Shown piece by piece: positions 2,785 through 64,000 of a DNA stretch of 64,000 bases; within the stretch, counting starts at the first letter, position 1, and every line of letters begins with the position of its first letter. The notes under the pieces were generated by a model. The model was not told the DNA's origin. It made no database searches and saw only the letters and a list, made by a program, of their open reading frames with translations. A program made the translations under genes and the position numbers. This DNA is from Anolis carolinensis. Taxonomy: Eukaryota. The stretch spans positions 182,048,107-182,112,106 of the forward strand of contig NC_085844.1 of the NCBI RefSeq assembly GCF_035594765.1, read 5' to 3'.

Positions 2785-3424
2785 ATGTAATGGTTACTGT
2801 AGAAGCCAGGAAATCCAGTGCTGTTTAAAATGCAGAACATTTTAAGTTTACTGTGTAGTTGTTAATTTAAAGTGTTTCTCCCTCCTACCTCTCCCACTTG
2901 TAGGAGATTTATATCCAGAGACCTGTGCAGGCTCTTTCCATTGAGTGAATTAACTCATAACAAAGCAGCAAAGTATTTTCACTCAAGAGTCCAGTTTTTT
3001 TTATTATTTGAACTATGGGCTGAATATTTGGTGGAACTTGTCTCTCTGGACCCGGGAAATTGCTGCAAATCAGTCTTGACATTATTAGGTTGTTTTGCTC
3101 TTGCTACAGCTGCTATCTGCAGAGATAAATCTCCTTTCCCTTGTTTAATCAAACACGGCTACTGTTTTGCTCCCGTGCTGCTCATTGTGCTAAATACAGG
3201 TTGTTTCATGGTTTAATTCCCTCCTTGGCCAATCTTCTGTCTTACAGGTAGGTGTTTGACAGGACATCAGGCATAATTGTGTGAACATCAAAACTGCACA
3301 TAACTGTCACATTATTTGCATTGCCCAATCATTGTTGGAAATGCTGGTCATCTTTTGGGCAGAAACAAAAGCTGTTCATTTGATGGATGATGGGGAAAGA
3401 AAAAGAATTCAACTGAAAAAAACA

Positions 3425-12242: not shown

Positions 12243-13591
12243 ACCCAACAGACTGGAAAAGGGCAAATGTTGTCCTTATCTTCAAGAAGGGGGAAAACAG
12301 GACCCAAATAAATACCATCCAGTCAAGCTGACATTAAACCCAGGAAAGATTCTGGAGCAGATCGTTAAGGAGGCAGTCTGCAATCACTTAGAAAAGAATG
12401 CTGTGATTACTAAAAGTCAACATGGATTTCTCAAAAACAAGTAATGCCAGACTAATCTTATCTCTTTTTTCAATAGAATTACAAACTTGGTAGATGCAGG
12501 GAATGCTGTGGATGTAGCATATGTTGTTTTCAGTAAAGCCTTCAACAAGGTCCCCCATAACCTTCTTGCAAACAAACTATTCAAATGTGGGCAAGACAAT
12601 GCTACTATTAAGTAGATCTGTAATCGGATAAGCAACCAAACCCAAAAAATGCTCGCCAAATGTTCATCCTGGAAAGAAGTGACTAGTGGAGTGCTGCAGG
12701 GTTTAGTCCTGGACCCAGTACTGTTCAACATCTATATTAATGACTTAGATGAATGTTTAGAGGGCATTCTTATCAAGTTTGCTGATGACACCAAGTTAGG
12801 AGGGATAGCTAATTCTCCAGAGGAAAGATTCAGAATGCAAAATGACCTTAACATATTAGAGAGCTGTACCAAAACTAACAAAATGAATTTCAGCAAGGAC
12901 AAATGTAAGAAACTACACTTAGGCAGAAAAAATTAAATGTAAAGATACAGAGTGGGTTACACCTGGTTTGACAACAGTCCATGTGGGAAAGTTCTTGGAG
13001 TGTTTGTGGACAAAAAGTTGAGCATGAGCCAACAGTGTGATGCAGCAGCTAAAAAAGGTAATGAGATTTGGGGTTGCATCAAAAGGGGTATAGAGTCTAG
13101 ATCGAGGGAAGTCATGGTGACACACTATTCTGCTTTGGTTAGACCTTATCTGGAATAGTGTGTCCAGTTCTGGGCACCACAGTTTAAAAGAGATATTGAC
13201 AGGCTGGAAGGTGTCCAGAGGAGGGTCACTAAAATTATCAAAGGTCTGGAGACCATGACATACAAAGAGCATTTTAAGAAGCTGGATATGTTTAGCCTGC
13301 AGAAGAGAAGGTTGAGAAGATACATGATAGCCATGTATAAATATGTGAAAGGGTGTCATATGGAAGAGGGAGCAGATGGAAGGTGGCCCTGGTCAGGGTT
13401 GGCTTGACACAACTACCTCTTGACACATTTCTCCCTTTTGCCCTCCATTCATGCCTCTTCGATTTCCACAGCTCTGTTGATAACAGCTGTCAGGGTTAAT
13501 TTGATTATGCTTTTCCTGCATGGTGGGGCGTTGGACTAGATGGCCCATGTAGTCTCTTTCAGATGTATTATTCTATGATTCTATGATTCTA
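12243..13591 (+). mobile_element. CR1 LINE, 5'-truncated and degenerate (ORF2 RT region plus 3' UTR)
   Basis: DWKRANVV, VTSGVLQGLVLDPVLFNIYINDLD, KFADDTKLGG, MSQQCDAAAKK and YSALVRPYLE motifs with stops and frameshifts; terminal (ATTCTATG)n tail at 13570-13591. Confidence 0.92.
13376..13492 (-). mobile_element. RTE-clade LINE fragment embedded in CR1
   Basis: The reverse complement reads as the RTE ORF C-terminal region (AVINRAVEIEEA*MEGKREKCVKR), unrelated to CR1 and opposite in orientation. Confidence 0.55.
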
Positions 13592-18558: not shown

Positions 18559-18900
18559 TGTTACGAGTCAGACGCCAGCCAATATAAATAACTCAGTTTA
18601 TTGCAAAAAACAACACAAAAGAGCCTAAGAAGCAACCAAAAAAGGGCTCAAAACACTTTCTCTTCAGTGTGAAGTAACAATGTCCAAAAAGAACTTGAAA
18701 AACCCATACTCAGGATATAATCTGGATTATCCTGGGAAATAATCCAGATTAAAACAAACTTAGTTGAAAAGGCTGGGAACTCGCTCCACCTGCTGGTTGG
18801 AGCTAAACAAACACAGGAAAGCTACCACCAATTACCCACAGTGACCAACGGCCACACAATGCCCCAAAACGTAGTTAAAGCTAAATCGCATTGTAAAGGA

Positions 18901-19050
18901 GAAGTCACAGCCGCCACATCCGGTCCGCGGCATTAGGAAGAAGTCACAGGCATCGAGTTCCAGTCCAAGTCATCAGGGAGAAGTCACGGTCATCAAGTTC
19001 CAGTCCAAGTCATCAGGGAGAAGTCACAGTCACCAAATTCCAGTCCAAGG
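18901..19050. repeat. 40-bp tandem repeat inside LTR
   Basis: GAAGTCAC recurs at 18901, 18940, 18980 and 19020; unit GAAGTCACGGTCATCAAGTTCCAGTCCAAGTCATCAGGGA. Confidence 0.85.
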
Positions 19051-19285
19051 TAAACACAAAGAGCCAAAGCGACGGAGGCAAGCCGGCAGCTAATGCATAA
19101 AACCAACACAGGACAATCCAGCACAAACCCACACAATGCCAGCCCCCATTGCCACTAAAAACCCAGGTTAACACTTACGTCCCAAAGCAGTCTTCCAAAC
19201 ACGTCTTCTGAAACAGAGATCCAGAAAGCGCCCAACAAACACCTTGCCTATTGCAAGGCCACATTAGCAACAAACTTACTTTTAT

Positions 19286-19759
19286 TTACAAGTCCTCCTC
19301 AGAACTTGAGCCAGCTAACGCCCCATCCACAGATGAACCTTGGTGCTGCAAATCCTCCTCAGAGCTGGAGCCGCCCAACGCCCCATCTCCAGCTGCTGCC
19401 CCTCTACAATCTCTCCAGCCAGTCCACCTTCTATCCAAACCCATAACGCCCCAGGATCCATCTGTATCTTCTCTGTGCCATCCCTCAAATGTACCACTGC
19501 TTGTGGGTTCCTCAAGAATCTCACGGATCTCCTGAACCTTAGTCCACTCCATCACTTCACTTCCAGAGTCTGACATCCCATCCTCCTGACTCCCAGCCCC
19601 ATAATCCCCTTCAAAGCCCTCAAAGGTATCATAATCAGTGGGCTCCATAAGTATTTCCCGGATTCTCTTCCTTTGTTGCTCCTCATTGGAGTCTTGCTCA
19701 CGAGTAGTTTTCCTGCCTCTTCTAATACAACTAGTAGGATCTCTACTTGAAGACTCCAT
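19286..19759 (-). CDS. LTR U3-encoded 157-aa acidic ORF with tandem FxG(F/W) motifs (putative; may be the C-terminal tail of the parent pol)
   Basis: ATG at the fifth base of the LTR (TGTG-ATG); uninterrupted frame MESSSRDPTSCIRRGRK...RIREILMEPTDYDTFEGF...EIREILEEPTSSGTFEGW...SSSEEDL that stops at the TATA-like box. Confidence 0.5.
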   Translation of the reverse strand: MESSSRDPTSCIRRGRKTTREQDSNEEQQRKRIREILMEPTDYDTFEGFEGDYGAGSQEDGMSDSGSEVMEWTKVQEIREILEEPTSSGTFEGWHREDTDGSWGVMGLDRRWTGWRDCRGAAAGDGALGGSSSEEDLQHQGSSVDGALAGSSSEEDL

Positions 19760-19760
19760 C

Positions 19761-19800
<40 letters not shown>
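19761..19800. repeat. (AAC)n microsatellite
   Basis: About 13 AAC units seen directly. Confidence 0.95.
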
Positions 19801-19801
<1 letters not shown>

Positions 19802-20214
19802 AGCTTGAAAGGCAGAAAATGGATGAAGTACGCAGTGATAAATGTTTGAGATATCAACATATGCCAAGAAGTGTTTCTTCTTGGTGGTTTCACTATAATA
19901 CAAACTTGAGAAAAGTTTCAACAAAAAATATGTTTAAATTCTAATTGACTTTCTTAAATACAAGGCAGATTTCCCTTTTTGTCAGATATTAGGCAAGCTA
20001 ATATGAAAGTTCCAACAGAGTATGTCTATTTGGAAGAAAAACTGCAATTGTTCATTCACAGTACTGTCACAGCTAGTATCCAAAAACTGATGCTCACCAT
20101 TATGAGATTACACTTACTGTATGTTTCTGCAGTTCAGGTGGCATCCAGGACTAGATAAACTAGTTAAAGAATAGCATTTTCCAAGCAACAATATATATTT
20201 CTTGCTGACTTACA

Positions 20215-20560
20215 GCAGACTTACGAATGAGAGACTTCTAACAGCCCCTATCTTGCAAATTCAGGATTGTGGCTTCCTTGATTGAACCAATCCACTTGTA
20301 ATGCTGCCTTCTTTTTCAACTGCCTTTCAGTTTGTCCAGCATTGCCATCCTTTCCAGTAAGTCACAACACCTCTTGATATGTCAAAGGGCATTAGCCTTC
20401 ATTGAGAATTTTGGATTTTTCAGCTTTGATTTGCTTTTTTAGCAATCCATTTGTTTTTTTTAGCAACCCAGCATCACATTTTAAAATATTTGATTTCCTT
20501 CTTGTCAGCTTTCTTCACTCTCCAGTGCTCATAACTATAAACATGTTACATTTAACAATG
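20215..20560 (-). mobile_element. Old RTE/BovB-like LINE remnant
   Basis: The reverse complement resembles the BovB-like 3' ORF end (LEXXXMLDKLKGS*KRRQHYKWIGSIKEA); heavily degenerate. Confidence 0.45.
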
Positions 20561-21835
20561 TTTCTGTCAAAGACTCTCTTTTAATGGAACCTTTTTATGC
20601 CTGCCCAGACCCTTTTGCTCATTCCCTGTCCATCTGTACTGAGAGGATGATGGAATGGATTGGAGAAACACAGCTAATCAGTGTCAGGTTGCAGCAGCAA
20701 ATCTGCGGCAAACAATGTAACAAAGCCTATGTGTGGAAAAATGCAGGTTTCTGTTCTAGCCAATCCTACTGTAGCTGGGTGCACCTTCAGAAAGGCTTAA
20801 TGAGTGCGCAATGAAATGCAAAACAGTGAGAAACTTGCTTTACGAAATCCTGCTGGTATGTTTTAAAAGAAGAATAAAGGCACATGGAAATCATAAGAAA
20901 AAATGACTTCAGAATAATTGATTTGGAAGGTAAAATCTTTTAATGTACTCCTTCTAGCTTCCTGATACATTGAATGGGCAATGTGCAGCCATGGGGCCAG
21001 GTGTAATCCCAAAAGTCTGGGTTTTTTTTGTTCAACATCCCCTCCAGATTCTCTGGACTCTGCTCTCCTGGCCAGAAAAGGGTGAACTGCCTCTTGTGAA
21101 CGCCTCTAGGAATGATGATACTCACCTTTTTAAAAGGTTATACTCCTCCCCTGCACTAACATTAGAAAACACAATTTTGTTTTTCAAAACCAACGTGGCC
21201 TTCTTGTAACAACTCTGATTTTACTTTCTTTTCACTTTTTGTAGTCTATGCAGCTCCCAGATGTTCCAGGCCAGAACAAAAACCTAGTAAATCTATTCTT
21301 AGTATTAATTTTTGCCATCAAAGGGTTTATACTACTTTCCTTTGTTGAAATTACATTTGTTCTGTTCAGATCCATAACAGTAACCAGATTAAAAAACAAA
21401 AATGAAAAGGGAAAATTTGCTTTCTGTTTCCAGTTTACTGTTTTAATTCTCCCCTTGTTGCTTCCATAGCAAAGCAAACATATTGGTTTGTTCTACTACG
21501 ACAGTCAATAATGATACCCAACAGGGCTGAAGAACTCCAGGATATTTCAGATTTCTCTCTGTGTTGTCTTGTTAGATTACCCTCAAATCATGCAGTAAAT
21601 ACTGAGCTTATGTGGGGTTATGAAATACCTTTAGCTTTAACAAGCTGAGCTAACCACAGTTCTATAACATGCTTAACAGAAACTAGCAATTCATCAGAAG
21701 GGTTTTTTTTAACCTATATAGAGAAAAGGACATAATGTATCACCATATTTCTTATAATTAACAAAGATTTGATCATCCTTATTGTTACTAGGATGAAAGC
21801 CAAAACTGTGAATGCTCTTTGTAGAGCCTCTAGAA

Positions 21836-21969
21836 CAGGCATGGGCAAACTTTGGCACCCCACGTGTTTTGGACTCCAACTCCCACAATTCCTAACAGCC
21901 ATTAGGCTGTTAGGAATTGTGGGGGTTGAAGTCCAAACCACCTGGTGGGCCAATGTTTGCCCATGCCTG
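21836..21969. mobile_element. Palindromic hAT MITE
   Basis: TIRs CAGGCATGGGCAAAC / GTTTGCCCATGCCTG, near-perfect hairpin, perfect 8-bp TSD CTCTAGAA (21828-35, 21970-77). Confidence 0.92.
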
Positions 21970-22090
21970 CTCTAGAATCAGGATGGGGGGGGGGGTCCTT
22001 TGGGGAGTTAAAAAGCAGTCCTTAACCTTTGACAGGTGCCCACCTCATTCCTTCTGGTAATATCTGGGGACCTCAGGTTAAGAACCACTG

Positions 22091-22440
22091 GGCTAAACAG
22101 TATAATTTCTCCAACGGAGTGGAGCATAGACATCCTATGGTAATGCAGCATGTCTTATTGAGAGCCACATCTACTGTTTTAACAAAGTGAGATGTATTCC
22201 ACATTGGACATGCATATTTTTCAGCAGAGTAGCAAAGCGCAAGGGCACTGTGTCGGGCTGTGATCCCCAGGTTGTTCCAGTCAGCTTTCATATGATATTA
22301 TTTCTAGCACCTTCTTTTTGCCTGATATTCAACCAGTGCTTCTTATAAGTCAGAGCATGGTGCAGAGTAACTCTCAGGTATTTTGGTGTGCTGCAATGCT
22401 CCAGTGGGACTCCTTCCCAGGTAATCCTCAGGACTTTGAG
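22091..22440 (-). mobile_element. Vingi LINE internal fragment
   Basis: LRITWEGVPLEHCSTPKYLRVTLHHALTYKKH and LALCYSAEKYACPMW...TCCITIGCLCSTPLEKLYCLA match the post-RT region of Ingi/Vingi ORFs and are homologous to 7390-7483. Confidence 0.75.
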
Positions 22441-22506
22441 ATTATATAAGATGAATTCTACCCTACACCTAAAGGCACCCATGTGCACACATATACTCAC
22501 ATGCCT

Positions 22507-22730
22507 TGTTGTTGTGTGCCTTCAAATCATTACCAACTTATGACTATAAAGTGAACCTAACCTAGGATTTCCTTTGTCAGACTTGTTCAGGTATGTGTGT
22601 GTGTGTGTGTGTGACTTTGCCTTCCTCTGAGGCTGAGAGAGTATGACTTGCCTAAGGTCACATACTGGTATTTCATTGGTTGAGTTGGAATGCAAAACCT
22701 AGCCCAGCACTCATACACTATGCCCCGTTG
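22507..22730 (-). mobile_element. Older tRNA-derived SINE
   Basis: Reverse complement of the family at 17313 (TGACTTGCCTAAGGTCAC core, TGTTGTTGTGTGCCTTCAA tail). Confidence 0.55.
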
Positions 22731-23149
22731 CTCCCACAGAGCCCCACTTTACTGGAGGATAATATTAAGGAATCAGCACAACAGATAGTGATATTGCCTG
22801 AAATCCTTGTCCCCAATGAATGAGATTTTTTTAAAAAAACAAAGAATTTTAAAGCGTAGGCATTTAAAAATTGGACACTTCTCCTGAAATTTAAATTTGT
22901 ATACTTTATTGTCTCAGGGATCAAGGCACACATTGGACTACATGCCTAGAGCTGAATGGGAGATGGGGAAGGATTGCGCTTCAGAAATAAACAGAACTGC
23001 TAACCTGCTGACCCTGTCAATTTCACCCTCTAGCCTTCTTGCTCAATTTCCTTCATGCAAAGCAAATGTAAATCCTCTCCTTGAACCTCTCTGCTTGTAT
23101 CTCGCTGCTGTCATTTCACTTCACTCTTCGCAGATTCAGAACTCTGAAA

Positions 23150-24215
23150 GCCTTAGGAAAAAAGAAGGTAAGTGTCTTCACCAGCCTCCCTCACTTCTTG
23201 TTTCTGGCACCTTGACGCTGAATGAGAGGAGTGGGTTGTTGCTTTGTGTGTGTTTGTACACACGCGTAGGTGGGATTTAACTGCCTGACAATACACTAAT
23301 ATCTGGAAACAAAAGAAAGGGGACAGAGGACAAGCTATGATCACAAGCTATAATGGAAGACTTTTGTTTGCAGCATCTCCGAGGCAAGAGTTGAGCAAGC
23401 TGAAATTCCCAAACTTCTGCCCTGTTATTTGAAGGACCATATTCTCCCGAGGCTAGTGCCTCCTCCTTAATACTGATATTTTTCTTTCTGGCTAGGAGAG
23501 AGGAGGAAGGGAGTGAATGAGAAGTTGTGTTGACTGAGGCAGAATAAAACAGAGCCACGCTGCCCCTAGTGGTGATGTCCGGGAAGGCAAGTGAAGTCGT
23601 GGATCAGTTGCTATTTTCAGCACCATTGGCGGTGAACAGCTCCAGGGAGCGTGGAGAGGGTTCTTCTTTCCAGACCAGATGGGGAAAAGTCAGGAGATGG
23701 TGGGGCAAACCGAAATACTCCTGGCGAGAGAGCCTGACCTCTCCTGAACCGGTCTGGCAGAGCCCAGAGAGGCTGGGAGGGGAAAGGGAAACATGTTGCA
23801 TGTGAACCCTTCTCTCTGTAGGAGAAGAGACAGCACCCCCCTGGGAGAGGTGGGAGGCTGCTCTCTGAAACAAAGCTTCCCACTCCAGCTTCGATCAGAG
23901 CCAGCTGGTGGTACAGAAGACCCCTGCAGCCAGGATCAAAGAAGTCCTCTACTCAGAGGGCACCAGACCTGGAGGATGCCTCAGCTCAGCTCAAGTTACC
24001 CACTGCCGTGATGTGACCAGATGATGTTCACAAATCACAGGGTACCCTTCTGTATTTCTTGGCTGCTATTCTTGGCTGCTTCCTGGGACCTTCCTTCTCT
24101 CTGAGGATTTCATTTCTATGTTTGTTTGGCTCTTTTTGACAATTGAATGAGAGAAGAAAATAGCTTGAGGGCACCAATCTCCTCTCGCCATTGCTGAAGT
24201 GTGACTGAAGTTCAG
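23150..24215 (+). promoter_or_regulatory. Candidate promoter and non-coding first exon of TMEM275
   Basis: Repeat-free, GC- and CpG-enriched island relative to the flanks, AT-rich box GAATAAAA at about 23542, ending at donor-like CAG|GTAATG (24215/24216). Inference only. Confidence 0.35.
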
Positions 24216-27200
24216 GTAATGCATTTCCTCTCCTGCTTAAAATAAATGCATTTGAATAATGATCATGTCAGCTAAGTTAATGGTGCTCCAATTGCTTAAG
24301 AATTTACCAGCAATCTCACTTACATTGAAGAAAATTTTGCTTTGCCAATGTTTACTGTGGGGTAGTTTTTTAACTGTAGGTTTTGTAGTCACAGGCTTGC
24401 ATGAAATTCTCCATAGAGTGCATGTTTGATGCTATACAAATATAGAGAGGAGAGAGAGAGGAGAGAACTCACTGAAAGGCAATTAAATGAAAAAAAAATA
24501 CCACGCATGTTTTTATAACTAGTTTCCTATTATTTATATGAATAAATATGGAAGAATACCTGATAATCTCTCCGTTTCCACTTAAATCTTAGGAGGTTTC
24601 CCTTAGATACACAACTTCTTAAATACTTGTCCGTTAATTCAAGTCTTTCCCTCCAACCTCAAGAATATGTCTTGAATGTCCTGTGGCATCGGCAGAACTA
24701 GAAAGGAGAATGATACCTTGCTACAAGAGTTTAGGATTCTTTTTTCAGTCCCTAAGCAATATGTTTGTTATTTGCTCCATTTTATCACTTCAGTGCTTCC
24801 TTCCAAAATATTGCAATTGCTCAATTTGCAGTTGTGTGTGTAGGAGGGATTAATATACATCAGAGAATAAACTCATAAAGGCAACACATTTCAGCTCCAA
24901 AATCTGTTCTTTCTCCCACACACACATTAGTAATGTTTATCCATAAAACGTTGGCACTGAATTTCCATTGAACTAAGAAACATCCTCTACTTATCCATGA
25001 ACTTGAAATCTGGTATCCTGGAGATTTCAATCCTTGATTAATCAGAGATGAACTTGTATGTGTAATATATTGATACTAATAACAGATGCTTCTCTTAAAC
25101 CTCAGTAAAGTGAATACGGATGCTGTTTGTGTTTTAGTGTATGTATTCATTCAAAATTTTGAATTGATCTTAAATTGAGTGGCTAACACTAACCAATCTT
25201 TTAATATATTTTAGCGAGTAATGGCAAAGAATATACCAGCCTATGGACAGTTATTCATAAGTTCAAAGAGGAAGTGAACAAGATTGCCAAGTCTTGGGGG
25301 CACTCTTGATTGATTTTCTTTCCAGCATTATATTTTCAATATAGTGTTTTATGCTAGTCTCATAGCATGTTCAATTATAATGTTTTTAATCCAGCTTCAA
25401 AGACTTTAAAATAAGGACCCAAAGAAGAAAGGAGCAGTAGAACTGCAGTAGGTCTGGAGGTGATTTTTCTCTCTCCCTTGAACTGTCTGGGAGTTACCCC
25501 AATAAGTAAAAAAGACCAACCTACCCAACCAATCTAGAAGTATCTAGAAGTTCACTACTGGTGTGAAAGCAGGTAAGTAAACAGTGCAGACACCTCATCC
25601 CCTGCAACATATTTAAAGGTGGCCACTCCTAGATATTTTTGGAAACGGCAGTACATACTGTACTATGTTTTCATGAGAAAAGGGGCCATTTAGGAAGTCT
25701 GGAGAGGTCCAAATTTGCCAAAATAGCCTTCAGATGAACATATAGCCCCAGAGTCACATGTTGCCCACTGCTGATGTAAGGCACTAACAGTAAATTCTTT
25801 GTGGAATCAAAATGCTAAAATATTCTGTTTTTCACTTCCAATGGATCAATGGTCCCATCTGTAAACTGACAAAGCAAAGTGCCATATGGAAAGTTAAAAC
25901 GTACTCTGTAGAAGTTACAGCTCACCAATAAGGTCCTGGCTTAGACTTCTGCTAGTTATGAATGCTGATATAACTTTTGCTGATACCATCATGTGCAGAA
26001 ACAAATCTTATGCAAACCCCCTTGTCCTGATTATATGGAAGCTCTTGAGATGCAGATCCTTCTTTCCGGAGACTGATCATCTGCAGGGTGCATCTGGGGC
26101 ATTCAAGATGCCCTTGAGCACCTGGAGTAGAAAAACCTTCTTTTATTGGGGATGAAGACTTCTCCTTCTTCCCAAGGGCAGTCAAAATGCTCCTGGAAGC
26201 ATGCCTGCATCTGGAAAGTGGATGGGGGAAGGAGCCCATGAACACCGTAAAACCACCAGAGTGGAAGCAGGAAAGAAAGACAAGCAATTGCCCCCAGATG
26301 ATGGATTAATTACCTTGGATAAGGCTTGCCAGAGGAATTAAACAATTTTGTGCCATATATTATATTTTTCCAGTGACCATAATCCCAGTTTTGGAAAAGG
26401 AAAAAGTAACCACACATCAATAAAGAACTGCACACATGTTTGATTCTCTGAAAGTCTATAGGCCATGGATCTGTAGTAAGTGTTACAATCCCTCTTATGT
26501 AGTTCTGTCAGAATAAACTCCTATATGATAGTGGTCTAGTGAGAGTATATATTCATGTGTTTGTGTGTGTTTCCTGCATTTGTGTTATGTCTAAAGTGGC
26601 CACTTCACTGTTAAAGACTACTTTAAATTACTATTAATTTTGTAGGTTATGTTTTGCTTAACCACACACGAGACTCTATAGTAACCAAATCACCGGTTAT
26701 ACTTCCAAGAGTTTGAAAAACTGTCTGCCTGTCTGTTCAATAACGATGATGTTGTAAGCCTGGTTTATAAAATCACAATAATCTATTACAACTGCATAGA
26801 CCAAATGAGCTCTCAAAATATTATCTTTGAAGTCTCACAGCCCCCCTTCAAACCCAACCATTTCTGAGACAGAGTAGTGAGTAATGACATGTCTAGCCCT
26901 CTTCCAGTCACAGAGCACACTGAGACAGACAGCTGCAACAGGATCTCAACAAGAGCTGCTGCATCTGTATGTCTCAGTGTGCCCAGCAACTGAGACAGGG
27001 CTGTAGAAATCATGATTCATCACCCTGCTCTCCAGTGCATTGGAAATGGCTGTATTGGGTAGGGGATGCAAGGCATTCAAGATAGAATTCACTAAAGAGG
27101 GCACTGCAGGTGTTGTAACTATGTCTCCATATGGCCAATGTTACAGTCAATGAAGTTGCTCCATGTGGTATCTTCTTCATTTCAATACTATGATGAAATC

Positions 27201-28123
27201 TTTCTCCATGTGATACTGAAGAACTAGCATTGTGCTAATCCTTTTTTTAAAAACAGATTTTATACATGACACAAGAAAGGTCAAACTGCACTATATTAGA
27301 AAATGGTACATTTCAGAAGAACTGAATTCATAAGGGCATAAGTCTTTCTGATTAAAATAAAATTTACTTCTAAGAAGTAAGTTTTAAGTTTACAGCTTGA
27401 AACAAACTTGGAGTTATGAAAAAGATTAACCATACAATGTTCCACATGCTTATTCAGAAATATGTTCTATTGAGTTCAGAGGGATTTACATCCAGGTAAA
27501 TTGGTATAGAGAACCAGCATGGTTTTTTGGTTTTAATGCTAGATCAGGACTCTCAAAAACCAGGTTAGAACTACATTTAAGTCATGGAAACTCACTTTGT
27601 GCAAGTTGTACTTTCCTTCAGTCAGTTAGGAAAATAGTGGCTACCCTGCTCATCTCAGATCACAGAAACAGTGGAAGCAGAGTCTCTGAACCAGATCTTA
27701 ATGCAGAGATATGCTAAAGGTGGAGATGACAGTAACCTTAATGGATTTTACCCTGACATCACACAGAGGAGATGAGATTTATTTATTTATCATGTCAGAA
27801 GCTAATTGAGACTATAGTTATAATGTATAAGAAACCCCACAAACAAAGTTAAATGTCCTTTGACCAGTAGCTGGCCACTTGGAGTGCCTCTGGTGTCACT
27901 GTGAGAAGGTCTCCCATTGTGCGTGTGGCAGGGCTCAGGCTGCATTGCAATAGGTGGTCTCTGGTTTGCTCTTCTCCACACTCGCATGTCGTGGACTCCA
28001 CTTTGTAACTCAATTTCTTAAGCTTGGCTCTGCATCTCATGGTGCCAGAGTGCAGTCTGTTCAGCATCTTCCAAATTGCCCAGTCTTGTGTGCCCAGGAG
28101 GGAATTTCTAATCTGGTATCAGC

Positions 28124-28296
28124 CCGGGGAGAGCTCCCTCTATCAGCTCCAGCTCCATACAGGGACATGAGAGAAGCTTCCCACAAGGATAGTAAAAACA
28201 TCAAAACATCCAGGCGTCCCCTGGAAAATGTCCTTGTAGACAGCCAATTCTCTCATACCAGAAGCAACTTGCAGTTTCTCAAGTCACTTCTGACAC
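28124..28296 (+). mobile_element. 5'-truncated bipartite Vingi-dependent SINE
   Basis: Sauria-like head remnant (GGGGAGAGCTCCCTCTATCAGCTCCAGCT), Vingi-leader homology to 7509-7593, and terminal CTTCTGACAC matching the Vingi 3' terminus. Confidence 0.65.
28160..28256 (+). ncRNA. HDV-like ribozyme fold
   Basis: P1 GGGAC(28162-66)/GTCCC(28216-20); P2 ATGAGAGAA(28167-75)/TTCTCTCAT(28248-56); P3 GCT/GGC; L3 TCCCAC; P1.1 GG(28223-24); P4 TGTC/GACA; J4/2 GCCAA. Confidence 0.65.
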
Positions 28297-31200
28297 TAAT
28301 TGAGGTTCCAGGTTTTAATCTGCCACTTTTGGACTCTTGCTTGCTGTGGTGTTCCTGTGAGTATCTCTGTGGATCTTAGAATGCTAGAAAAACTTTCAAT
28401 AGATGAAATAAATTTATTAGATAAAGATATACATATCTACCTGTTCACGATAAGTGAATACCAGAGCTTGGAAAGCTTATTTTTGGACTACATTTCCCAG
28501 AATCTCAAAGCCACCATGCCAGTTGTACAAAAATAACTTTTTCAAGCTATGGTTTCTCATGTTGCTGTATATCTTCATTTAATAAATGCATTGCATCTTA
28601 AGCCATAGTAATGCTTTCCATCACTAACATACTTTTTGTGTGTAGGGGTATAATTTCAGAGGTATGTGATATACTGGAAATGTGTGATTCTATAGTCAGC
28701 AAGAAATAAGAAAGCAAGAATATGTTCCTGTTGACATGAAACACTAGAGAAATGAGAAGGATTTTGGATTGTGTCAGGAATGAAATGCATGCACAACAAT
28801 AGCAATTGGACAGTGGACCAGTTCTGCCCAAACTCCAACTCTTGGCATTTTGGTTCTCTTAGTTTAGTGCCTGAGACACATGGCACTACTGACATCCATG
28901 CACATACACATATTCATTACTATGGTAGGACACAGTTTACAAGGTGCTGTTGCAAAACTCCCATTCATTTAGCTAGGTTTTTCCAGGCATTCAGATCTCT
29001 AGATCTTCTATTTGTCATCCAGAGTGACCTTGCCCAGTGTGAGGTCAATCCTGCAACTGATCAGCTGAAAGAGAAAGCGAGACATTAAAAGAAGATCAAA
29101 GAACATGCTGAGCTGTATGCATTGTGTTCCCTGCATTAGAAAGAATGAATCAGCCACACTAGTTCTAAAACATCCTTTGCCCCAATCTATTTTTGGAGGC
29201 TGTTCAGGATGGTGTTCGTCCATTCCAAAGATGAAATTTGAATGAATGATCCATCTTATCTGGTTCAATCTAGTTCTGTTACAAGTGAAATTCATTGTTG
29301 ATAGGAAGCTAAATTAAAGAGACATACAATACATGTTTTTATGTAGGTGCTCTATATGGATTTCTGCCCCCTTGCTAGCTTACCAGAAATCATTAATGTT
29401 TGGAAGAACAGACTCTCTTCTGTTCTTTTTTGCCCTTGATCTGAAAATGGATCAGTTAGAAAGTAGGGTGGCTACATCTAGAAAAAGAAAAGAAAAGCAA
29501 AACTGCCTTGTCAAAAAGATTTGCCTTTTATTTGCATATGACTCTGCATATGTATGTATGGAAATTTTCATGACAAAGATTATAATTCAACAGAAATGCA
29601 ATATGGAAACTAACCAGGTGGTGCTGTCTCTGCTCAGTTTGCTATTGAGCTTCTCCCTGTTTGTGCGTATTTTCAAGTATTCACAAGATCAGTGGCATGA
29701 TTCACTCTGAGTTTTAGTCCAAACTTTGAAGGAACTATCTATGTTTCTGAATCCTATTCTCAAAAGCTTTGGTGTCTTGTACAGCTCCTAAAATTCAGAG
29801 TGAGTTCATCTCATTGATAGGAGATCTACCGGCTGACATTGCATCCAAACTCCCTGCTCCGTCTGCTTATTGTTTCTGAAAATGTACATGGAAGACAGAC
29901 CATCAAATGGAAGACACTTTCCGACAGAGGATTGTCTTATGTAAAAGACATAAGCTCAGCATCTTAATACATTTGCAAAAGGAGTGTGATAGGGAAGAAT
30001 CCTTTCTAGCTTTGGCATATTGGATTTTGGTTTCCATGAATGTTACAAGCAACTCTGTGTTCACCAAATCTAGAAGTAAAATAAAGTGTAAAGTTGGCCA
30101 GTATTCTTTTGGCTCACCATACTAGGACAACAACACTATCATAATAAGTGGTACCAAGTTAAGGGCCCTCATTGGCCTCTCTGCCTGCCTGTCACTCTGT
30201 TCTCTCCTCCTATCACTTTGTTTGTTAGACTGATACTTCTCAGGGACACATACATGGCAAACCCCTGAGTCTTCCATGCTGTTCTACTGTTTGTTCTTCT
30301 CCTGTGAGCATGGAGATACAAGATGTCTGCTGTGAAATAGATAGCTAGACAGCAAGGCCCTGTTAACTTTCCTATATAGGTATGTAATTCTTTGAGTAAT
30401 TTTTTTTAAAACTTTTGAGTTTGACTCTGTTCCTGAATTGCTTAAGCTCAATTGTTCTGTTCATGGCACTAGAAGCTTCTGAACTGCTGGTACTGCTGTT
30501 GTTGCTTTACTTTTTTGGAATACTTTTTTCTTTTTGGAAATTACTCCCCAACATGTTGAAGAAAGAGGCTGTTCTGAGTGGACTCATTTTGCTACTTTAT
30601 TTGCCACTATTGTGTGACTCTGGCAAAAGGGAAACCACTACTGTAGAACTTCAACAGAAACTGGGCTATTGTCTGAGCATAATAATGGTGAGAAAAGGTA
30701 GCTCCACCCACTGTGCTATACAATGTCCCAAAGCTTAGGAGTAACAAGGACAGGTGTACAATGTGCTGTACATGCATGGATTTTGTGGACAACATCCAAC
30801 AGTCATGTCCAGCTAACAGTAGTAGGAGTGGAATTACACATGGACAACCATTGTACATGGTTACACATTAAAATACACAGATTAATATGCAAATAACCTC
30901 CATGTATTATGCATTTTATTGTTCAATGGGCTGATGCCCATGTGTGTTGCTCAATTATCTACATAAATTGTGTTATAGTGGTATTCTGTTTAGGAGTTGC
31001 ATAATGTCAGTGTGACATAACTCCACCAGCAGATGTTCATGCTGTGGCCAACATGTGGATTATATAAGCATTAAGCTTGTTGTCTCCACTCATAAATGTT
31101 TCCGGAGCAAGCTGTACTCCTTGTCCATGTTCATTTGACTTGTCAAACTTAACTGAATCATTTCTATAGAACAGGAAGCCACTGAAAATACAAGTCATAA

Positions 31201-31518
31201 TAAGAAAAGAAGAATATTGCATTCAACCAAATAAAGCCAAATCCCGTGTGTTGTACTAAGTGTATTTGTGTGGGGGGGGGGGGCAGTGGGCGGGGAGGGC
31301 GACAACGATGATGACACACAGCTGTCATGAAAGTAATGGATGAGGCCTGTCTGGCCTCAGCAGTGTGTAAGCAAAAGAATAGCAGTCAAGTAAGGAGCAT
31401 TTTATCCATCCTGCTGTGTTCTGGACAGGCAATCTACGGTACTTGTTGAATTTTTCTGAGCAGTCAAGTCAAGTCATATGGATGTTATTCTATAGGGCCC
31501 TGTGAATGAAAACCATAT

Positions 31519-31882
31519 ACAATTTGAATATCCCTTATCTGAAATGTTTGGGACCAGAAGTGTTTTGGATTTCAGACCTCCCTCCCCCCCTCAGATTTTA
31601 GAAACTTGTATTTGCCAATACATACATATTGAGATATCTTGCAGATGGGACCTATTCCTAAATACAGCATTCATTTATGTTTCATATGCCTATGGCTTGC
31701 ATATAGCTTGAAAGTCATTTCATACAATATTTTTAAAATGTGTGTGAAACAAAGTTTGTGTACACTGAACCATCAGAAAGTAAAGGTGTCCTTCTCTATC
31801 TCAGCTGCCCATATGGATAATTTTTGGATTTTTTTTTACTATTTCTGGTTTCAGAGTTCTGAATAAGTGACATTCAACTTGT
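31519..31882. mobile_element. Tigger/Tc1-mariner-type MITE
   Basis: TA-flanked inverted ends CAATTTGAATATCCCTTATCTGAAA / TTCTGAATAAGTGACATTCAACTTG. Confidence 0.6.
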
Positions 31883-32469
31883 ACCTCTTGAATTAGAGTT
31901 TAGAAGGAATTATGTATAAGCAACATAGTTGCCAGCAAGTTGTGTGTGTCTGTGTTAGAAACAAAGAGAAGAGCATAAGATTACACTACCACAAAAGAGA
32001 ACAATCAGATCTTTTGATGTAACAGGTTGTTTGCAATTGTTGCTATTTCAATAATACCCCACCATTTCCCAAGCATTGCAGCTGAAAGTACCTCACAAAA
32101 TATAACACAGATAAAAGCATATCAGTAAAAAAAACAACCCAGTAACATAAACATTAAAATAAAACTAATCTGCTTAAAGAATTAAAAGCAATTCAAAAAC
32201 TACCCTTCACATATTTTCTAGATTTTTTTTTAGTTAAAGAGCATTTTAGAGGAAGTTTGAGTAGAGTTGTTCACATTTGATGCCATTTTCTTATCAGCCT
32301 TAAATGCTTTTTTATACAATGAAAAGATACTAAAAATAATTAGTTCAATGCATAATGTGGCAAGTTACCTTTAAAATATTGTGATGAGCAGTGACAGTGA
32401 AATATTTTATTGCTTTCTGTAAGTTATCAGAATGAGTTAATTTTTAAAAAAATATACTTCCCAAGCTTT

Positions 32470-32628
32470 GTTCTGAATATCAGCTGCTGAGAACAAGCAT
32501 TGGGAGAGAGCTGTTGCTCACAGTTCTCTCTTGTAGACTTCCCAGAGGGATCTGGTTCGTCACTGTAATAAACTGGAAGATGCCAGACTAGATTGATCTT
32601 TGATCTGATCCGGGTGGAGCTTATGTTG
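32470..32628 (+). mobile_element. Old CR1-related 3' end
   Basis: GACTAGATTGATCTTTGATCTGATCC...CTTATGTT terminus typical of old CR1 3' UTRs. Confidence 0.45.
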
Positions 32629-34728
32629 ATGCAGCTGGACGGGCTTCACAAGCCAGCTGGGGAGAAGACCTTTGTAGAATCAGCTCAGTCTCGTTTGTTA
32701 AGCGGAGTTAATTGGATTGGTTGGATTCCACTTCATTATAGCCTTTTTCAGAAAATCCTCTACACAGTAGTTGTGGAGTGGGGGAAGGATGACTTTACTT
32801 CCCCATCCCACCCCCAATTTTCCATGCCCTACTGACATCAGCCCTCAAAACCTTTGCATTCCACACAGTCTCAAAAAGAGATTTCTGTGGGCCTACAGCT
32901 TTTCACATAAGCACACATTCCAGTCATGCAGAGTCTGTCGTCCATAGCAATAAGTGTGAAGGATCCTACACCACACATTGTACAAAGTAAGTTTCCAGGG
33001 AGCAAGATGTTTGGGGTGGGATCCCTTCCTAACATGTTTTGTTTATACATGGAGGTAATACTCTTTAAAGGGTCTGAGGTCCGATTTGGGTTTTTGTGAA
33101 AGGAGCGCCTGTATTTGCAAGTAATTTTATGTGCAAAGGCACTTATACATTCTTACCTTATGGTGTCCATCCCAATGGGAAGTGTGCCAAACAGTGGAAG
33201 GAAATGTCTGTGGAGTCATGGCAATGCAGTGGTAAGTGTGCTGAACTAGCTCTCTGGGAGATCAGTGTTTAAAACTTACACAGATAAGCCTAACAGGAAG
33301 GGAATGGCAATCCTAAAAATAGATCTTGCAAGGAAACCACTACTGCAATTACAAAGTCATCAACCTTTCCACTTTCCCCCACATTTGTCATGTGAGGAAA
33401 AGGAGGTAGTTAGAAGTTTTGCTAGTTGCCTGTTCCTCGTTATTTTATCCATTGAGAATCAAAGTCTGTTCTTCTGCCTAATCCCCTTTTTAGGTCATGC
33501 TTGAATGTGACAGAGATTGGTGTGTGTGTGTTTCATATATGCCCCTGGAAAAGTCATTGGTATTTTGGAAAATTTAATCTAATTGTAGCTTGATGTAATA
33601 GCTGAGAAACAGTTGACACATAACCTTTCTATTTTAATTTGTATATTCTGTATGATTTGCTAGTAGACTTTCCAGATCTCAGGACCTTTTTTCTTAGTCC
33701 TCAGGATGGGAGTGCTAACCTTGAAAAACAGGTCTGTGTCTCAGTATGTACTTCCATCATTTCTTAATCTTTATATATTTTCTCTGAATGGCACAATTGT
33801 TACAGTGATGTTTAATGGCATTACCTGGGGACATTATCCTTGAAATCTCGGTATTTGTGTTAGCTCTGATCTGGCAACCCAACTTGCAGACATTATTACA
33901 GATTTGCACAGGTTGTTTGCTTTCATTGGAATTTAAGAGGGGCAATGTCCCAGGTTTTGCATCTTTTTCTTGTGTCAAATGAGCTCTGTCTTTTGAGGTA
34001 TGCCCACACTGCTCAACTGTAGTGGTTTGATATTCTTTTAACTTCTGTAATTCCTTCCTACGGAACCATTAGAGTTTGTACTTTGATGGGATGGTATTTA
34101 GAATTCTCTGAATTCTCAAATGCAGAGCTCTTGAGCAGAAAATTCTCAGTCTCTCATGAAGCTTTGAATGCAGGATTCTATAGGAGATAATTGTGACATT
34201 TTGAACATACCTTCTAATATTTCACAAATTTGGAATTTAGGAGGCCAGCTGGGCTGACAGCATATTGACACCTCCTGGGAGCCACTGCCACAGCTGTTCT
34301 TCCAACCAGAGGCAAATGTAAGCAGGTCCATGGCAAAGTCTTGCTGGTAACATTGCTTATAGTGAAGGCAGAACAGGTTGTCCAAACATGTGATCATTAG
34401 AAATGATGCAGGACTCAGAGCTGCTTGGAGTGGTTCTCTCTTGATTTGTGAATCCCGGATTGTATTAGATTAGGCTCTATTCAGCTGTCCACATGTCAAA
34501 AGCATACAGGTCATTCCAGAGTTTCCTTGAAGCTACTGAAGAACTGGTCATACATTGTATTGACTGCTTGCAGCAGTGTCAAGATGAGTCTGCTTTATTT
34601 GACTCATGCAGACATAAGGTTGGGCTGCTTCCTCAGACCTTATAAAACAGTCATATGCCCCATTTCTGAGCCTTTGTCTTCCTATGCCTACTATCTATTT
34701 TGTTGGTAACCTGTAGGCTATCATAGAC

Positions 34729-35619
34729 TGTGACACCCCTGGCTGCGAGAGCACTGGAAACCAATACACCGAGGCCAATAAACAATCTAATATCTTTATT
34801 AAGGAATTAAGAAATTAAAACGAAAACAAGCAGAAGATATAGTTCATCAATAGACCTTTCAGGAAAGGTCAAATATAGTCCAGTAATATATTGTCCAATG
34901 TATAATATTAGAGTTTAAAGTTTGTAATCCAAAAACCGAAACACACTCAAACTTCCAAGCAGTTTGAGTGGGGAAAACGTTCAAGTCTTTTGCTAGAGTT
35001 CAATGTAAGTCCAAGGCAAGGTATAGAAGACAAGGCTGGAATCACGGCGAGACAAGGCAAGGAAACATGGCTAGGCAAGACATGGAAACACGGCCAGGCA
35101 AGGCACGGCTAGACTGGAAGGTAGTGGAACTAAACGCGGTCCACACTTGGCTGGAAGTGAAGTTGATCCTCCAACTGACACGTTGACTCCTCACTGGCTA
35201 GCCAGCGCACAGAAGTTTTAAGGAACTTCAAATCTTTTCACAGAGCAGGTGTCCAAATTCTCTTTTCCCAAGGGAAAAGAGCTAAAACAACATCTTCACC
35301 AGATGCGATCCTCCCTGAGAATTCTCAGGGAAAAACAGGTTAATCAGCAGATTCTCTAGCTGCTAATCGCGTGCTCCTTCTCCTGCCAGCTTTCTCAGAC
35401 CTGCAAGTTTCCCAAAATATTCGCCTATCAAAGGGAGGGGAACTGGCGGGAGAAGGCTCCGTTTCAAGGGCCTTTTTAATGAGCTGTGGACTAGAATTGT
35501 CAATAGGAAGCAGCTGGAAAGAGGCAGAGTCTTGCTGAATCGGCACAAACCCCATGTCCTCGTCACTGTGGTCCATAATGGAGGCAGGATCACGGCCCAA
35601 GGGTTCAGGGGACATCACA
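34729..35619 (-). mobile_element. Solo LTR (probably Gypsy-type), 891 bp
   Basis: TGTGACA...CATCACA termini, perfect 5-bp TSD TAGAC (34724-28, 35620-24), - strand AATAAA at 34795-34800, internal CAAGG repeats. Confidence 0.9.
35340..35615 (-). CDS. LTR U3-encoded 91-aa ORF with acidic-GF and RRSxRL motifs (putative)
   Basis: ATG at the fifth base of the LTR (TGTG-ATG); open frame MSPEPLGRDPASIMDHSDEDMGF...EKAGRRRSTRLAARESAD. Confidence 0.4.
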   Translation of the reverse strand: MSPEPLGRDPASIMDHSDEDMGFVPIQQDSASFQLLPIDNSSPQLIKKALETEPSPASSPPFDRRIFWETCRSEKAGRRRSTRLAARESAD

Positions 35620-36129
35620 TAGACAAAGGATCTGCTTCATGTACCTTTGGTAAAATGAGTGGGGATTGACTTCTCTAATTTCTCTGCACACATCAGGTGT
35701 GGGTTTTTTTGTGTATCATTGTGCTCACATATGCAGCTTGTCTGCAGATCAACATCTGTGCCAGTGACATGCCTTTTGGGACTGTTTTGAGACATTGCTG
35801 CCATTTTATCAAACTTCTAACTTTTTGTCAAGGGCTGCTCATACCCAACTTCATGTGCCTTCTTTATTGGGACAAACACAATTTCCAAAAGCCCCAGACA
35901 ACAGACAGTAAGGGATTTTGAGAGTTATAATCCAAAACATCTCAGTGGGGGGGAAATCTTCATTTGGTCTTAATAGTCTGGTTACGGCCTAGGTAGAAAA
36001 CAATTTGGGAACCGACATGATCTTAACAATCATACTGGCTTATTTTAAAATGTTGTTCCAAAATTATGGAGATAATGTACATTGTATTTTGCTTGTTGAA
36101 GATGTGTGGTTTAAATATTTATATTAATA

Positions 36130-37291
36130 TCTCTATATATAATAAAAGTGAAATCGGAGTATGTATCAGCTTTTTGATTGGCCTGGCGGAATATGTGCTC
36201 GCGTTTTGATTGGCCTGGCGGAATATGGATCAGCTTTCTGATTGGCTGGCCGGAATATGGGCCAGCTCTGATTGGCTGCCACTTTCACAGGCCACTGGGA
36301 TTGCTGAGGGAAAAACTACTACCAACTGGCTTCGTTCGGCCTACTTATCTCCTCAGAACGATGCTAGCTTTGGGAGAGTTAACAGCTTTCGGCCTACACT
36401 TTGGTAATAAAAAACACCACTGCCACCACCAGAAAGGCCGGACCTGGACCAAACTTGACACACATCACCCCTACGATCCATGAACCCACTGACAACAGAT
36501 GGCCCCCTTTGGCCCCTCTGCTGACATGTTTAAGGCCTTCCAGGCTGGCCTCACGCCGCTAGACCCAAAAGGAAGACGCCATCTTGCCTCAGCTTTCAAC
36601 TTCTTTGTAAGGCCCTACTTTCCTCAAAAGACAGCAGAGAACATTGTTATTATCTTTTTAATGATATGCTTATGAACACTTCTAGCCCCCAAAGCCCCAA
36701 TCCAAGCCGCCTTTGATCATTTTGCTAACACGTTTCAGGCCTTGCAGCCTGGCTCCATTGTGCTAGGCCGCAAAAGAGGCGGCCATTTTCCCTGTTCCAA
36801 ACAGAGCAGCTTTTGCCTGTGTCTTTTGGATACAGCACTCTCCTTCAACAAGGTCAGGCGGCAGTACGTAAATAGGTTGATCCACTGTGACGGCACTTCC
36901 TCATTCCAACGTCATAAATTAGTTAAATTTGCCTCCCCACTTTATAAGTGGTACCTTATTTCCTACTTTATAGATGCAACTATCTTTCGGGTTGCTAGGT
37001 CCTTTGGCTCTGGGAGTTATAGTTCACCCTTATATAGACAGCACTGAACCCAGCCAACTTCGGATCTGGACCAAACTTGGCACACTGCCTCATCATGCCC
37101 AACTGAGCATACAGGCAGGGTTTCGGGGTGATTCTCCTTTGGCTCTGGGAGTTGTAGTTCACCCTTATACAGACAGCACTGAACCCAGCTGATGATGGAT
37201 CTGGACCAAACTTAAGTGATATTTCCTCACATCCCCAAACAACTCAATGCTGTCTACTAATAACCCGGGCACCACCGGGACCCCAAGCTAG
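36130..37291 (+). mobile_element. Non-autonomous Helitron
   Basis: 5' TC(TCTATATATAATAAAA), 3' hairpin CCCGG-GCACCA-CCGGG (37264-79) then CTAG, inserted between A(36129) and T(37292) with no TSD. Confidence 0.88.
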
Positions 37292-39808: not shown

Positions 39809-40357
39809 ATGTTTGTTGAAAAGAGCAACACTCCTTTGTCTCAGAAACCAAGTAAGAAAAAGACCAGGCCACAGGGTCTGCCTTCCCCAGCTCTTTGCTG
39901 TGCTTGTGGTCTGTGTATCATGCTAGCAGGGATTAACATCACTCTGGTGGGTGCCTTTGCTTTTGGAACATTTCTGCCTGTCAACAATCCTCCTATTGTC
40001 ATTGGGCCCATCCTTTTGGTGGTGGCATTCACTTTCTTTGGGGCCTGTTGCATCTGCAGCCGAAGGCCGCCCGCTCATGGCACAAGGAAATCCAAAACTG
40101 GGGCTAACATTGGACTCATCAAACCCGGCAACACGGCTTTCGAGATTGAAACCAGTGAGCATACTGTGCAAGACACGACTGCAGTGCAGTTGAGCCCAAC
40201 CAACTCTCCAATGTCCTCCAAGAAATCCACACCGATTCATGAGAATTCGAAGACCTGCAAACTCTTTACAATGGACAGCAATGGGCCAGCAGCCAAGTAC
40301 ACAGCTGGTGGAGAATCAATACAGCTGAATTTGCCCAGAGACATTGCTATGTCATAA
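39809..40357 (+). CDS. TMEM275: Transmembrane protein 275 (two TM helices, Cys-rich flanks)
   Basis: 182-aa intact ORF with motifs I recognise from vertebrate TMEM275: GLPSPALCCACGLC, LAGINITLVGAFA, FFGACCICSRR, ETSEHTVQDTTAVQLSP and IQLNLPR. Confidence 0.9.
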   Translation: MFVEKSNTPLSQKPSKKKTRPQGLPSPALCCACGLCIMLAGINITLVGAFAFGTFLPVNNPPIVIGPILLVVAFTFFGACCICSRRPPAHGTRKSKTGANIGLIKPGNTAFEIETSEHTVQDTTAVQLSPTNSPMSSKKSTPIHENSKTCKLFTMDSNGPAAKYTAGGESIQLNLPRDIAMS

Positions 40358-63982: not shown

Positions 63983-64000
63983 AGTTCTAGTGTTTGTATT

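Follow-up and report, generated by a model that had tools for sequence, protein, structure and literature searches.

Evidence for an LTR-encoded integrase tail with a TIM-like motif in Anolis carolinensis, and a likely counterpart with an HMGN-like motif

The 64,000-nucleotide stretch of Anolis carolinensis DNA analysed in this study (the window) contains two solo LTRs on the minus strand, LTR A and LTR B, each with an open frame that begins at its 5' edge (Table 1). The hallmarks of Ty3/Gypsy LTRs were found, namely TG...CA ends, AATAAA near the 3' end and a short target duplication, which is perfect in LTR B (5 bp, TAGAC); in LTR A the duplication is hidden by the (ACA)n tract at its edge. 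Reading of the flanks revealed neither a PPT nor a PBS adjoining either LTR. A Pfam scan of 9-48 kb, from which short exons would escape, detected no host gene around the LTRs; it covered 150 of 165 stop-free stretches of at least 62 codons, with the 15 overlapping the LTRs omitted. Putative TATA elements, at guessed positions, are TAAATAAAAG at the ORF A stop and CTTAAAA about 120 nt past the ORF B stop.

Table 1. Features of the two solo LTRs and their open frames (window positions; strand "." where none applies)
Feature	Position	Strand	Remark
Solo LTR A, TGTGATG...GTAACA	18559..19763 (19763..18559 in element sense)	-	1205 bp
(ACA)n microsatellite adjoining 5' edge of LTR A	19761..19800	.	
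AATAAA close to LTR A 3' end	18597..18602	-	supports minus orientation
40-nt tandem repeat, 3 copies, non-coding part of LTR A	18931..19049	.	
ORF A, open from LTR base 2, 158 codons + TAA	19286..19762	-	homolog of integrase C-terminal tail, Anolis Gypsy pol models
Basic-acidic-basic stretch, aa 14-33, putatively bipartite NLS-like	19664..19723	-	Bimax1 peptide 3ukw_C, E 0.92, weak
TIM-like motif 1, aa 26-50: predicted helix, 8-aa acidic linker, FEGF	19613..19687	-	definition PMC9987994
TIM-like motif 2, aa 73-95, ends FEGW; in-frame duplicate 135 nt downstream	19478..19546	-	
Two SSSEEDL repeats, acidic, CK2-like, 60 nt apart, frame-keeping	19289..19369	-	
Solo LTR B, TGTGA...TCACA, end GTCACA, multi-copy family	34729..35619 (35619..34729 in element sense)	-	891 bp
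Target-site duplication TAGAC, left copy of LTR B	34724..34728	+	
Target-site duplication TAGAC, right copy of LTR B	35620..35624	+	
AATAAA close to LTR B 3' end	34795..34800	-	
23-nt tandem repeat, non-coding part of LTR B	35031..35105	.	
ORF B, open from LTR base 2, 92 codons + TAA	35340..35618	-	likely integrase tail of second family
HMGN-like motif RRSTRL, aa 80-85	35364..35381	-	Ala at aa 83 in most other copies

The first-pass annotation had claimed that both LTRs open a reading frame at TGTG-ATG, with an ATG at base 5 and proteins of 157 (LTR A) and 91 aa (LTR B), and both statements were borne out. Each whole LTR was subjected to 20,000 dinucleotide shuffles: the same frame stayed open equally far from the edge with P = 1.5e-4 (A) and 7e-3 (B), and any of the three frames with P = 4.5e-4 and 0.02, respectively. 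Since random window positions, which lie partly in genes of other elements, reached at least 92 codons in 2.5% of cases (at least 158 codons in 1.2%), the LTR B frame is only modest by itself. The duplications within ORF A (135 and 60 nt) keep the frame, whereas the repeats outside the frames (40 and 23 nt) do not. Beyond TGTGATG the LTRs have, as had been noted, no obvious sequence in common: blastn detected no shared stretch longer than 17 nt. The heptamer starts both elements, and it had been taken for a common design; however, it fits the general att consensus of rGmr1/Sushi LTRs, TGTNANR/TGTYANR (PMC3601003), and the ATG in both LTRs is therefore no sign of a common start codon. A shared translation signal was rejected on this ground. 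As judged from sequence, the heptamer is the integrase att site only.

As a single query, ORF A found no longer protein, and it had no match in the Atlas, viral contigs or metagenome contigs. A five-sequence profile built from ORF A and its first matches, with the top 8000 candidates scored, retrieved the A. carolinensis pol proteins P0008-P0010; the named homologs were all from this species. ORF A and the P0008 tail share 41% identity over 115 columns (pairwise E 2e-19). P0008-P0010 have the Pfam order RVP-RT-RNaseH-H2C2-rve-SH3_Tf2-1, and the best PDB match of the sister-family pol was Ty3 Gag-Pol (E 9e-141). The order PR-RT-RNaseH-IN is thus present in a sister family with an ORF A-like tail, and holds for solo LTR A by homology. 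In this family, SH3 leads via about 30 residues to RGDS, after which come VM and a tail of about 138 aa. No chromodomain was matched in P0008-P0010 by Pfam at E<=0.1; in place of the integrase C-terminal chromodomain of chromoviruses, 40-42 residues lead from HPVF to the tail, which occupies the usual chromodomain position. The cluster has 125 members, of which 34 were listed; 30 of the 34 extend to the end of the integrase, and in 29 of these the VM tail continues from the integrase at that distance.

Because three chimeric models change from unrelated sequence to the tail precisely at VM, VM marks the LTR edge. The tail runs in frame behind the integrase with no chromodomain, so that the ATG of LTR A would be an internal Met. 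This junction is known from predicted proteins rather than DNA, and from a sister family (about 41-46% identity) rather than the family of LTR A itself. The reading of the LTR A frame as the end of pol, encoding an integrase tail, is supported by these protein models. It was also foreseen that solo LTRs would scatter motif-bearing frames, which is true at the DNA level; gene predictors have fused such frames to unrelated sequence (P0003, P0004, P0006, P0007, P0011, P0012). As for other matches of ORF A, the basic-acidic-basic stretch resembled the Bimax1 peptide, which we take to be an importin-alpha ligand, and a Rod_cone_degen Pfam match (E 0.001, below the cut-off) was rejected as low-complexity noise.

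A TND-interacting motif (TIM) comprises an alpha-helix with aliphatic anchors, an acidic linker of 8-16 residues and FxGF (PMC9987994). In ORF A, a helix predicted at aa 26-39 (pLDDT 80-87) directly abuts an 8-aa acidic linker and FEGF. The predicted helices H26-39 and H73-84, based on the five-sequence alignment, correspond to the TIM helix, and the linker has 8 residues in P0001, P0003 and P0008, as the definition allows. ORF A carries one FxGF and a duplicated FEGW copy, and the number of TIM-like motifs differs among families (one, two or three). F-x-G-F and P41 are invariant in five tails at 40-45% identity. The FxGF is found in 20 of 20 full-tail pol models, which were chosen for an intact tail; without that filter, it is retained together with the hydrophobic pair in 27 of the 30 models reaching the integrase end. 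The motif patterns (FxGF and RRSxRL) were picked after the sequence had been seen. Among 177,635 PDB sequences, the tail profile matched best 6emo, the LEDGF IBD-JPO2 M1 complex, and was aligned on the JPO2 TIM; the match was weak (E 0.44, and 0.02 only once trimmed to the matched region), and neither ORF A alone nor P0030 alone retrieved 6emo from PDB at E<=10. The ORF A tail, with a motif like those of LEDGF-binding host proteins, likely helps to choose insertion sites. Other TNDs are also bound by TIMs, and acidic tails serve other uses too.

Chromatin-binding-like motifs had been claimed for both LTRs, and this applies to FxGF in ORF A and RRSTRL in ORF B; FxGF itself is absent from ORF B, which has DMGF only. 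Across the window's 128,000 six-frame residues, RRSxRL occurs once, and it appeared in 6e-4 of residue shuffles. The core with three arginines is present at aa 80-85 of ORF B. In other LTR B copies from four sequencing runs (12, 29, 2 and 8 contigs), residue 83 is nearly always Ala, and these copies therefore match the HMGN core (PMC13347269); two runs were presumed to be RNA, but they carry no information on expression. ORF B had no PDB match, and no pol parent of LTR B was found among longer proteins, in the Atlas, in metagenome contigs or by exact look-up; none of the listed loose ends of LTR B read contigs contained the LTR edge. Of the 12 listed ORF B substitutions, four are synonymous (P 0.35, with a neutral share of 25%), and none of seven clustered indels falls in the frame region (P 0.07); hence no selection on ORF B is shown. 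The frame and the VM start of ORF B are the same as at the A-type junction, and ORF B is likely the integrase tail of a second family with a nucleosome-binding motif.

Taken together, we consider it probable, with some reservation, that the LTR A frame is the end of pol and that its tail tethers the integration complex to host chromatin through a TND protein such as LEDGF or HDGFL2, with the LTR B frame as a similar tail with a nucleosome motif. In this mechanism, the polypurine tract would encode RGDS, T-GTG-ATG at the edge of the LTR would encode VM, and ribosomes on the genomic RNA would pass out of the internal region and into U3 of the 3' LTR. The U3 frame would be copied to both LTRs by reverse transcription, and LTR-LTR recombination would then leave solo LTRs with an orphan frame, whose ATG would code for an internal Met and precede the promoter of the LTR itself. 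The helix, acidic linker and FxGF would bind a TND; FxGF points to LEDGF/HDGFL2, readers of H3K36me2/3, which would bias insertions toward transcribed gene bodies, while RRSxRL of ORF B may be an HMGN-type arginine anchor on the H2A-H2B acidic patch. Of the two models in the first-pass annotation, the reading of pol through the PPT into the 3' LTR is supported for LTR A by the homologous tails fused in frame to integrase; for LTR B no pol parent was found for either model.

Alternatively, pol may read into U3 and yet yield a tail that has a role in nuclear import, solubility or packaging, or that is a stop-free extension which is simply tolerated, with FxGF and RRSxRL incidental. Compared with the integrase core, the tail has indeed changed more rapidly, and the TIM stretch shows no clear excess of conservation over its neighbours (mean identity in the 20 full-tail models: core 0.95, TIM stretch 0.86, rest of the tail 0.82); the NLS-like Bimax1 match and the weak PDB E-values point the same way. 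However, families at 40-45% identity still retain FxGF, the hydrophobic pair before it and the 8-aa spacing, different families carry the motif in one, two or three copies, and the tail sits at the normal chromodomain site; we regard a non-targeting tail as rather unlikely. It is also unlikely, in our judgement, that LTR A holds a pol tail while the LTR B frame arose by chance, with no common design: its shuffle P is only 0.007-0.03 and homolog, parent and selection signal were not found, but its frame and VM start are those of the A-type junction, most copies carry the HMGN-core motif, and none of the 12 listed substitutions creates a stop.

The other model of the annotation, in which the U3 frame is, or is in addition, an accessory gene in its own right, comparable to MMTV sag or HIV nef, would involve its own ATG, a spliced or internally started RNA, and a product acting as a decoy for TND proteins or nucleosomes. 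The ATG at base 5 of both LTRs, the Met start of P0003/P0004-type models and the failure to find a pol-fused form of these types or of ORF B accord with it. Nevertheless, we hold it to be very unlikely: 29 of 30 sister-family models have the tail fused in frame to integrase, which leaves such a gene unnecessary for LTR A; the att consensus accounts for the ATG; and in a 5' or solo LTR this ATG precedes the presumed promoter.

Lentiviral integrase binds LEDGF via its folded core dimer, whereas ORF A would rely on a linear motif of host type, carried on a tail. The predicted host factor and gene-body outcome are the same as in lentiviral integrase-LEDGF tethering (PMC9987994). With the TIMs of JPO2/CDCA7L, MLL1 and IWS1 (PMC9987994; 6emo), ORF A has in common the helix, 8-aa acidic linker and FxGF with CK2-type sites nearby, as well as tandem copies, and it aligns residue by residue with JPO2 M1; unlike them, its motif lies on a retrotransposon integrase, is encoded within an LTR, and is predicted to bind TNDs. 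ORF B shares the RRSxRL arginine-anchor pattern with the HMGN core and the HMGN-like motifs of Dsup and Dot5 (PMC13347269), whereas its motif lies in an LTR frame with a putative link to integrase. The Ty3-like pol with an SH3/GPY-F end is likewise found in vertebrate V-clade (Sushi/Amn) chromoviruses (PMC2774666), and the LTR ends fit the Sushi/rGmr1 att consensus, but the lizard pol is without a chromodomain. An undescribed system had been proposed; however, plant CRM group A elements, which begin with TGATG, encode a putative targeting domain in the 3' LTR (PMC3059260). Pol extends into the 3' LTR both in these chromoviruses with the CR motif (PMC3059260, PMC3605345) and in the protein models of the lizard sister family. 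The host is a lizard rather than an angiosperm, the lizard tails are disordered, acidic and TIM-like (A) or HMGN-like (B), and they are predicted to target transcribed chromatin or nucleosomes in general rather than centromeres. Literature searches brought up no vertebrate case in which pol enters the 3' LTR to encode a targeting tail with a likely LEDGF-binding mimic.

A bolder and more doubtful proposal, which we put forward tentatively, is that anole Gypsy elements have replaced the chromodomain by an LTR-encoded host-mimic cassette. One lineage would carry one to three LEDGF/HDGFL2-binding TIMs for H3K36me3 gene-body integration, with convergence on the HIV host factor via a different surface, and another would carry an HMGN anchor; as the cassette lies in U3, exchange of LTRs between elements would alter promoter and target together. 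To our knowledge, little is known of insertion-site choice by vertebrate LTR retrotransposons apart from the chromodomain, and LEDGF tethering has so far been treated as a lentiviral trait. A near-textbook JPO2-like motif on a retrotransposon integrase allows a direct and cheap test of independent LEDGF capture. Scans that mask LTRs as non-coding miss such tails, and gene predictors join them to host genes, as in the glucosidase II model P0012. Finally, these findings suggest that the layout of plant CRM elements, in which a targeting domain lies within the 3' LTR, has originated a second time, in vertebrates.

The two solo LTRs reported by the first-pass annotation were both found on the minus strand, and the frame from LTR base 2 (GTG ATG...) was open from the edge over 158 codons in LTR A and 92 in LTR B. 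LTR B has a perfect TAGAC target duplication, the 5' edge of LTR A adjoins an (ACA)n tract, and AATAAA lies near the 3' end (position 1162 of LTR A and 820 of LTR B), as in the Sushi-type LTRs described in PMC3601003. As had been stated, the LTRs were alike only in TGTGATG, with no common match above 17 nt; this motif fits the integrase att consensus TGTNANR in that paper, so its sharing needs no extra explanation. Against 20,000 dinucleotide shuffles of each whole LTR, the openness of this frame gave P 1.5e-4 for LTR A and 7e-3 for LTR B (or, with all three frames allowed, 4.5e-4 and 0.02), so that U3 ORF length stood out strongly in LTR A and more modestly in LTR B. Both LTR-edge frames are a real feature.

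Features of the window
Feature	Position	Strand	Description
LTR A	19763..18559	minus	1205 bp, TGTGATG...GTAACA
LTR B	35619..34729	minus	891 bp, TGTGATG...GTCACA
Decayed coding-like stretch around LTR B	33760-34728, 35620-35960	minus	Cys-rich end, weak PHD_Oberon match (E 4e-4); may be an old, piggyBac-like DNA-transposon remnant
LINE reverse-transcriptase remnants	3341-4039, 12616-13400, 20200-20560, 51429-51791		Pfam RVT_1 for first two; RTE/CR1 type
MITE-like inverted repeats	21829-21976, 26870-27027, 56777-56886, 57339-57716		palindromic
Tandem repeat, 32 nt x 3.5	36155-36276		CCAAT box (ATTGG) in every unit
182-aa single-exon ORF	39809-40357	plus	two hydrophobic segments, no Pfam match; resembles TMEM275
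BEL/Pao-type element	57929-64000	plus	clade name inferred from DUF1759 and integrase
Its candidate LTR	upstream of ~58600		TG start, AATAAA
Its 26-nt x 9 array	59056-59299
Its 1413-aa ORF	59638-63879		in-frame 33-nt x 5.6 repeat; DUF1759, zf-H2C2 and rve matches; no RT/RNaseH match, hence probably internal deletion of the element

A phmmer search of ORF A, the frame of LTR A, against 1.84 billion representatives gave four matches at 45-48% identity (three Anolis gene models and one Logan protein), and every named homolog was from Anolis carolinensis. F47, G49, F50, P41 and four Trp were invariant when ORF A was aligned with the matching parts of these proteins. The profile of this alignment gave eight matches among longer proteins, of which three (P0008-P0010) were Gypsy pol proteins of a sister family with protease, RT, RNase H, integrase and Tf2-type SH3 domains; a domain search found no chromodomain in them, and the best PDB match of P0008 was Ty3 Gag-Pol. 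Past the SH3 domain, about 30 residues ending in RGDS are followed by VM and then by the tail, which in P0008 aligned directly with ORF A at 41% over 115 columns. When 34 of the 125 members of the three clusters were surveyed, the integrase end was reached in 30; in 29 of these the tail followed at a distance of 40-42 residues from HPVF, and 27 retained both FxGF and the hydrophobic pair. Three unrelated chimeric models changed into the tail precisely at VM, so the LTR edge is placed at VM; the frame there is the T-GTG-ATG frame of the window LTRs, and the polypurine tract presumably codes for RGDS. The Anolis models P0003, P0004, P0006, P0007, P0011 and P0012 fuse the LTR tail to LINE fragments or glucosidase II alpha, and are probably annotation artefacts of solo LTRs.

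The junction is known here from predicted proteins of the sister family, on which UniRef and NCBI models agree, and this homology shows that in the ORF A lineage pol shares its frame with the U3 region of the 3' LTR. The two models proposed had been read-through of pol into U3 and an independent U3 gene of the sag or nef type. The homologous tail in frame behind integrase bears out the former for LTR A, where read-through is very probable from the predicted proteins and the independent U3 gene stands as a rival. Because both LTRs receive a copy of U3 and recombination yields solo LTRs, every solo LTR is left with an orphan frame, in which the ATG represents an internal Met; this frame lies upstream of the presumed LTR promoter and would require an outside transcript.

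In the accessible part of PMC9987994, the TND-interacting motif (TIM) is defined by three parts, a helix, an acidic linker 8-16 residues long and, optionally, FxGF, the last carried by all known LEDGF and HRP2 partners, and lentiviral integrases alone are named for its viral mimicry. The FxGF named in the first-pass annotation is present in ORF A: a predicted helix (26-39, pLDDT 80-87 in a model that is otherwise low-confidence and averages 57) leads through an 8-residue acidic linker to FEGF, and another copy, ending in FEGW, lies 135 nt downstream. The number of TIM-like copies differs between families, with three in P0003/P0004, two in P0001 and one in P0008. The duplications within ORF A have sizes divisible by three (135 and 60 nt); arrays outside the LTR frames do not (40 and 23 nt). 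Searched against 177,635 PDB sequences, the ORF A profile had as the better of two matches 6emo, a LEDGF IBD-JPO2 M1 fusion, aligned on its TIM (E 0.44, or 0.02 with the profile cut to the matched region after the fact); neither ORF A alone nor protein P0030 alone retrieved it from PDB.

Binding of a TND protein by the ORF A tail is moderately likely. The tail would take the place of the chromodomain and may serve as a tether between the integration complex and such a protein, with LEDGF or HDGFL2 the likeliest partner, which would bias insertion towards transcribed chromatin. A pol tail without a targeting role is the rival to this tether; among 20 full-tail pol models, mean identity in the TIM stretch (0.86) barely exceeded that of the remaining tail (0.82) and was below that of the integrase core (0.95).

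For ORF B, the frame of LTR B, neither a homolog nor a pol parent was found in protein, metagenome contig or PDB searches. LTR B is a multi-copy family in contigs of four runs aligned to 34550-35800 (1354 and 2521 aligned records in the two larger runs), and its edge was not among the contig loose ends listed for these runs. The chromatin-binding-like motifs claimed for this LTR held in part: RRSTRL at residues 80-85 is the sole RRSxRL in the six frames of the window, but FxGF is absent. RRSxRL arose in 6e-4 of residue shuffles, for a pattern chosen after the sequence was seen. In all four runs, nearly all other copies carry an Ala-giving letter at codon 83 (place 35372), and with this Ala the motif equals the vertebrate HMGN core given in PMC13347269; the ORF B tail is likely to be anchored on the nucleosome acidic patch. 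A chance frame in LTR B is the competing explanation, and no signal of selection on the frame emerged: among the substitutions listed (40 of 113 rows), 4 of 12 inside the frame were silent (P 0.35) and none gave a stop, and none of seven clustered indels fell inside ORF B (P 0.07). Pol read-through is rather likely for LTR B, and the whole reading, with read-through tails of both LTRs as chromatin tethers, is favoured slightly less firmly.

The system had been proposed as undescribed; the layout, with pol coding into the 3' LTR, is already known from the plant CRM group A chromoviruses (PMC3059260). The ORF A lineage is not CRM, given its lizard host, and it does not pass the chromodomain test for V-clade chromoviruses (PMC2774666). 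In the full-text literature, which leaves out most subscription papers and supplements, no report was found of a vertebrate Gypsy tail in U3, nor, in the same literature, of any retrotransposon integrase with a motif of the TIM or HMGN kind. What is surprising, and open to direct test, is that the integrase tail of a retrotransposon, in LTR A, carries a JPO2-like, putatively LEDGF-binding motif, beside which a second family carries an HMGN-like motif.
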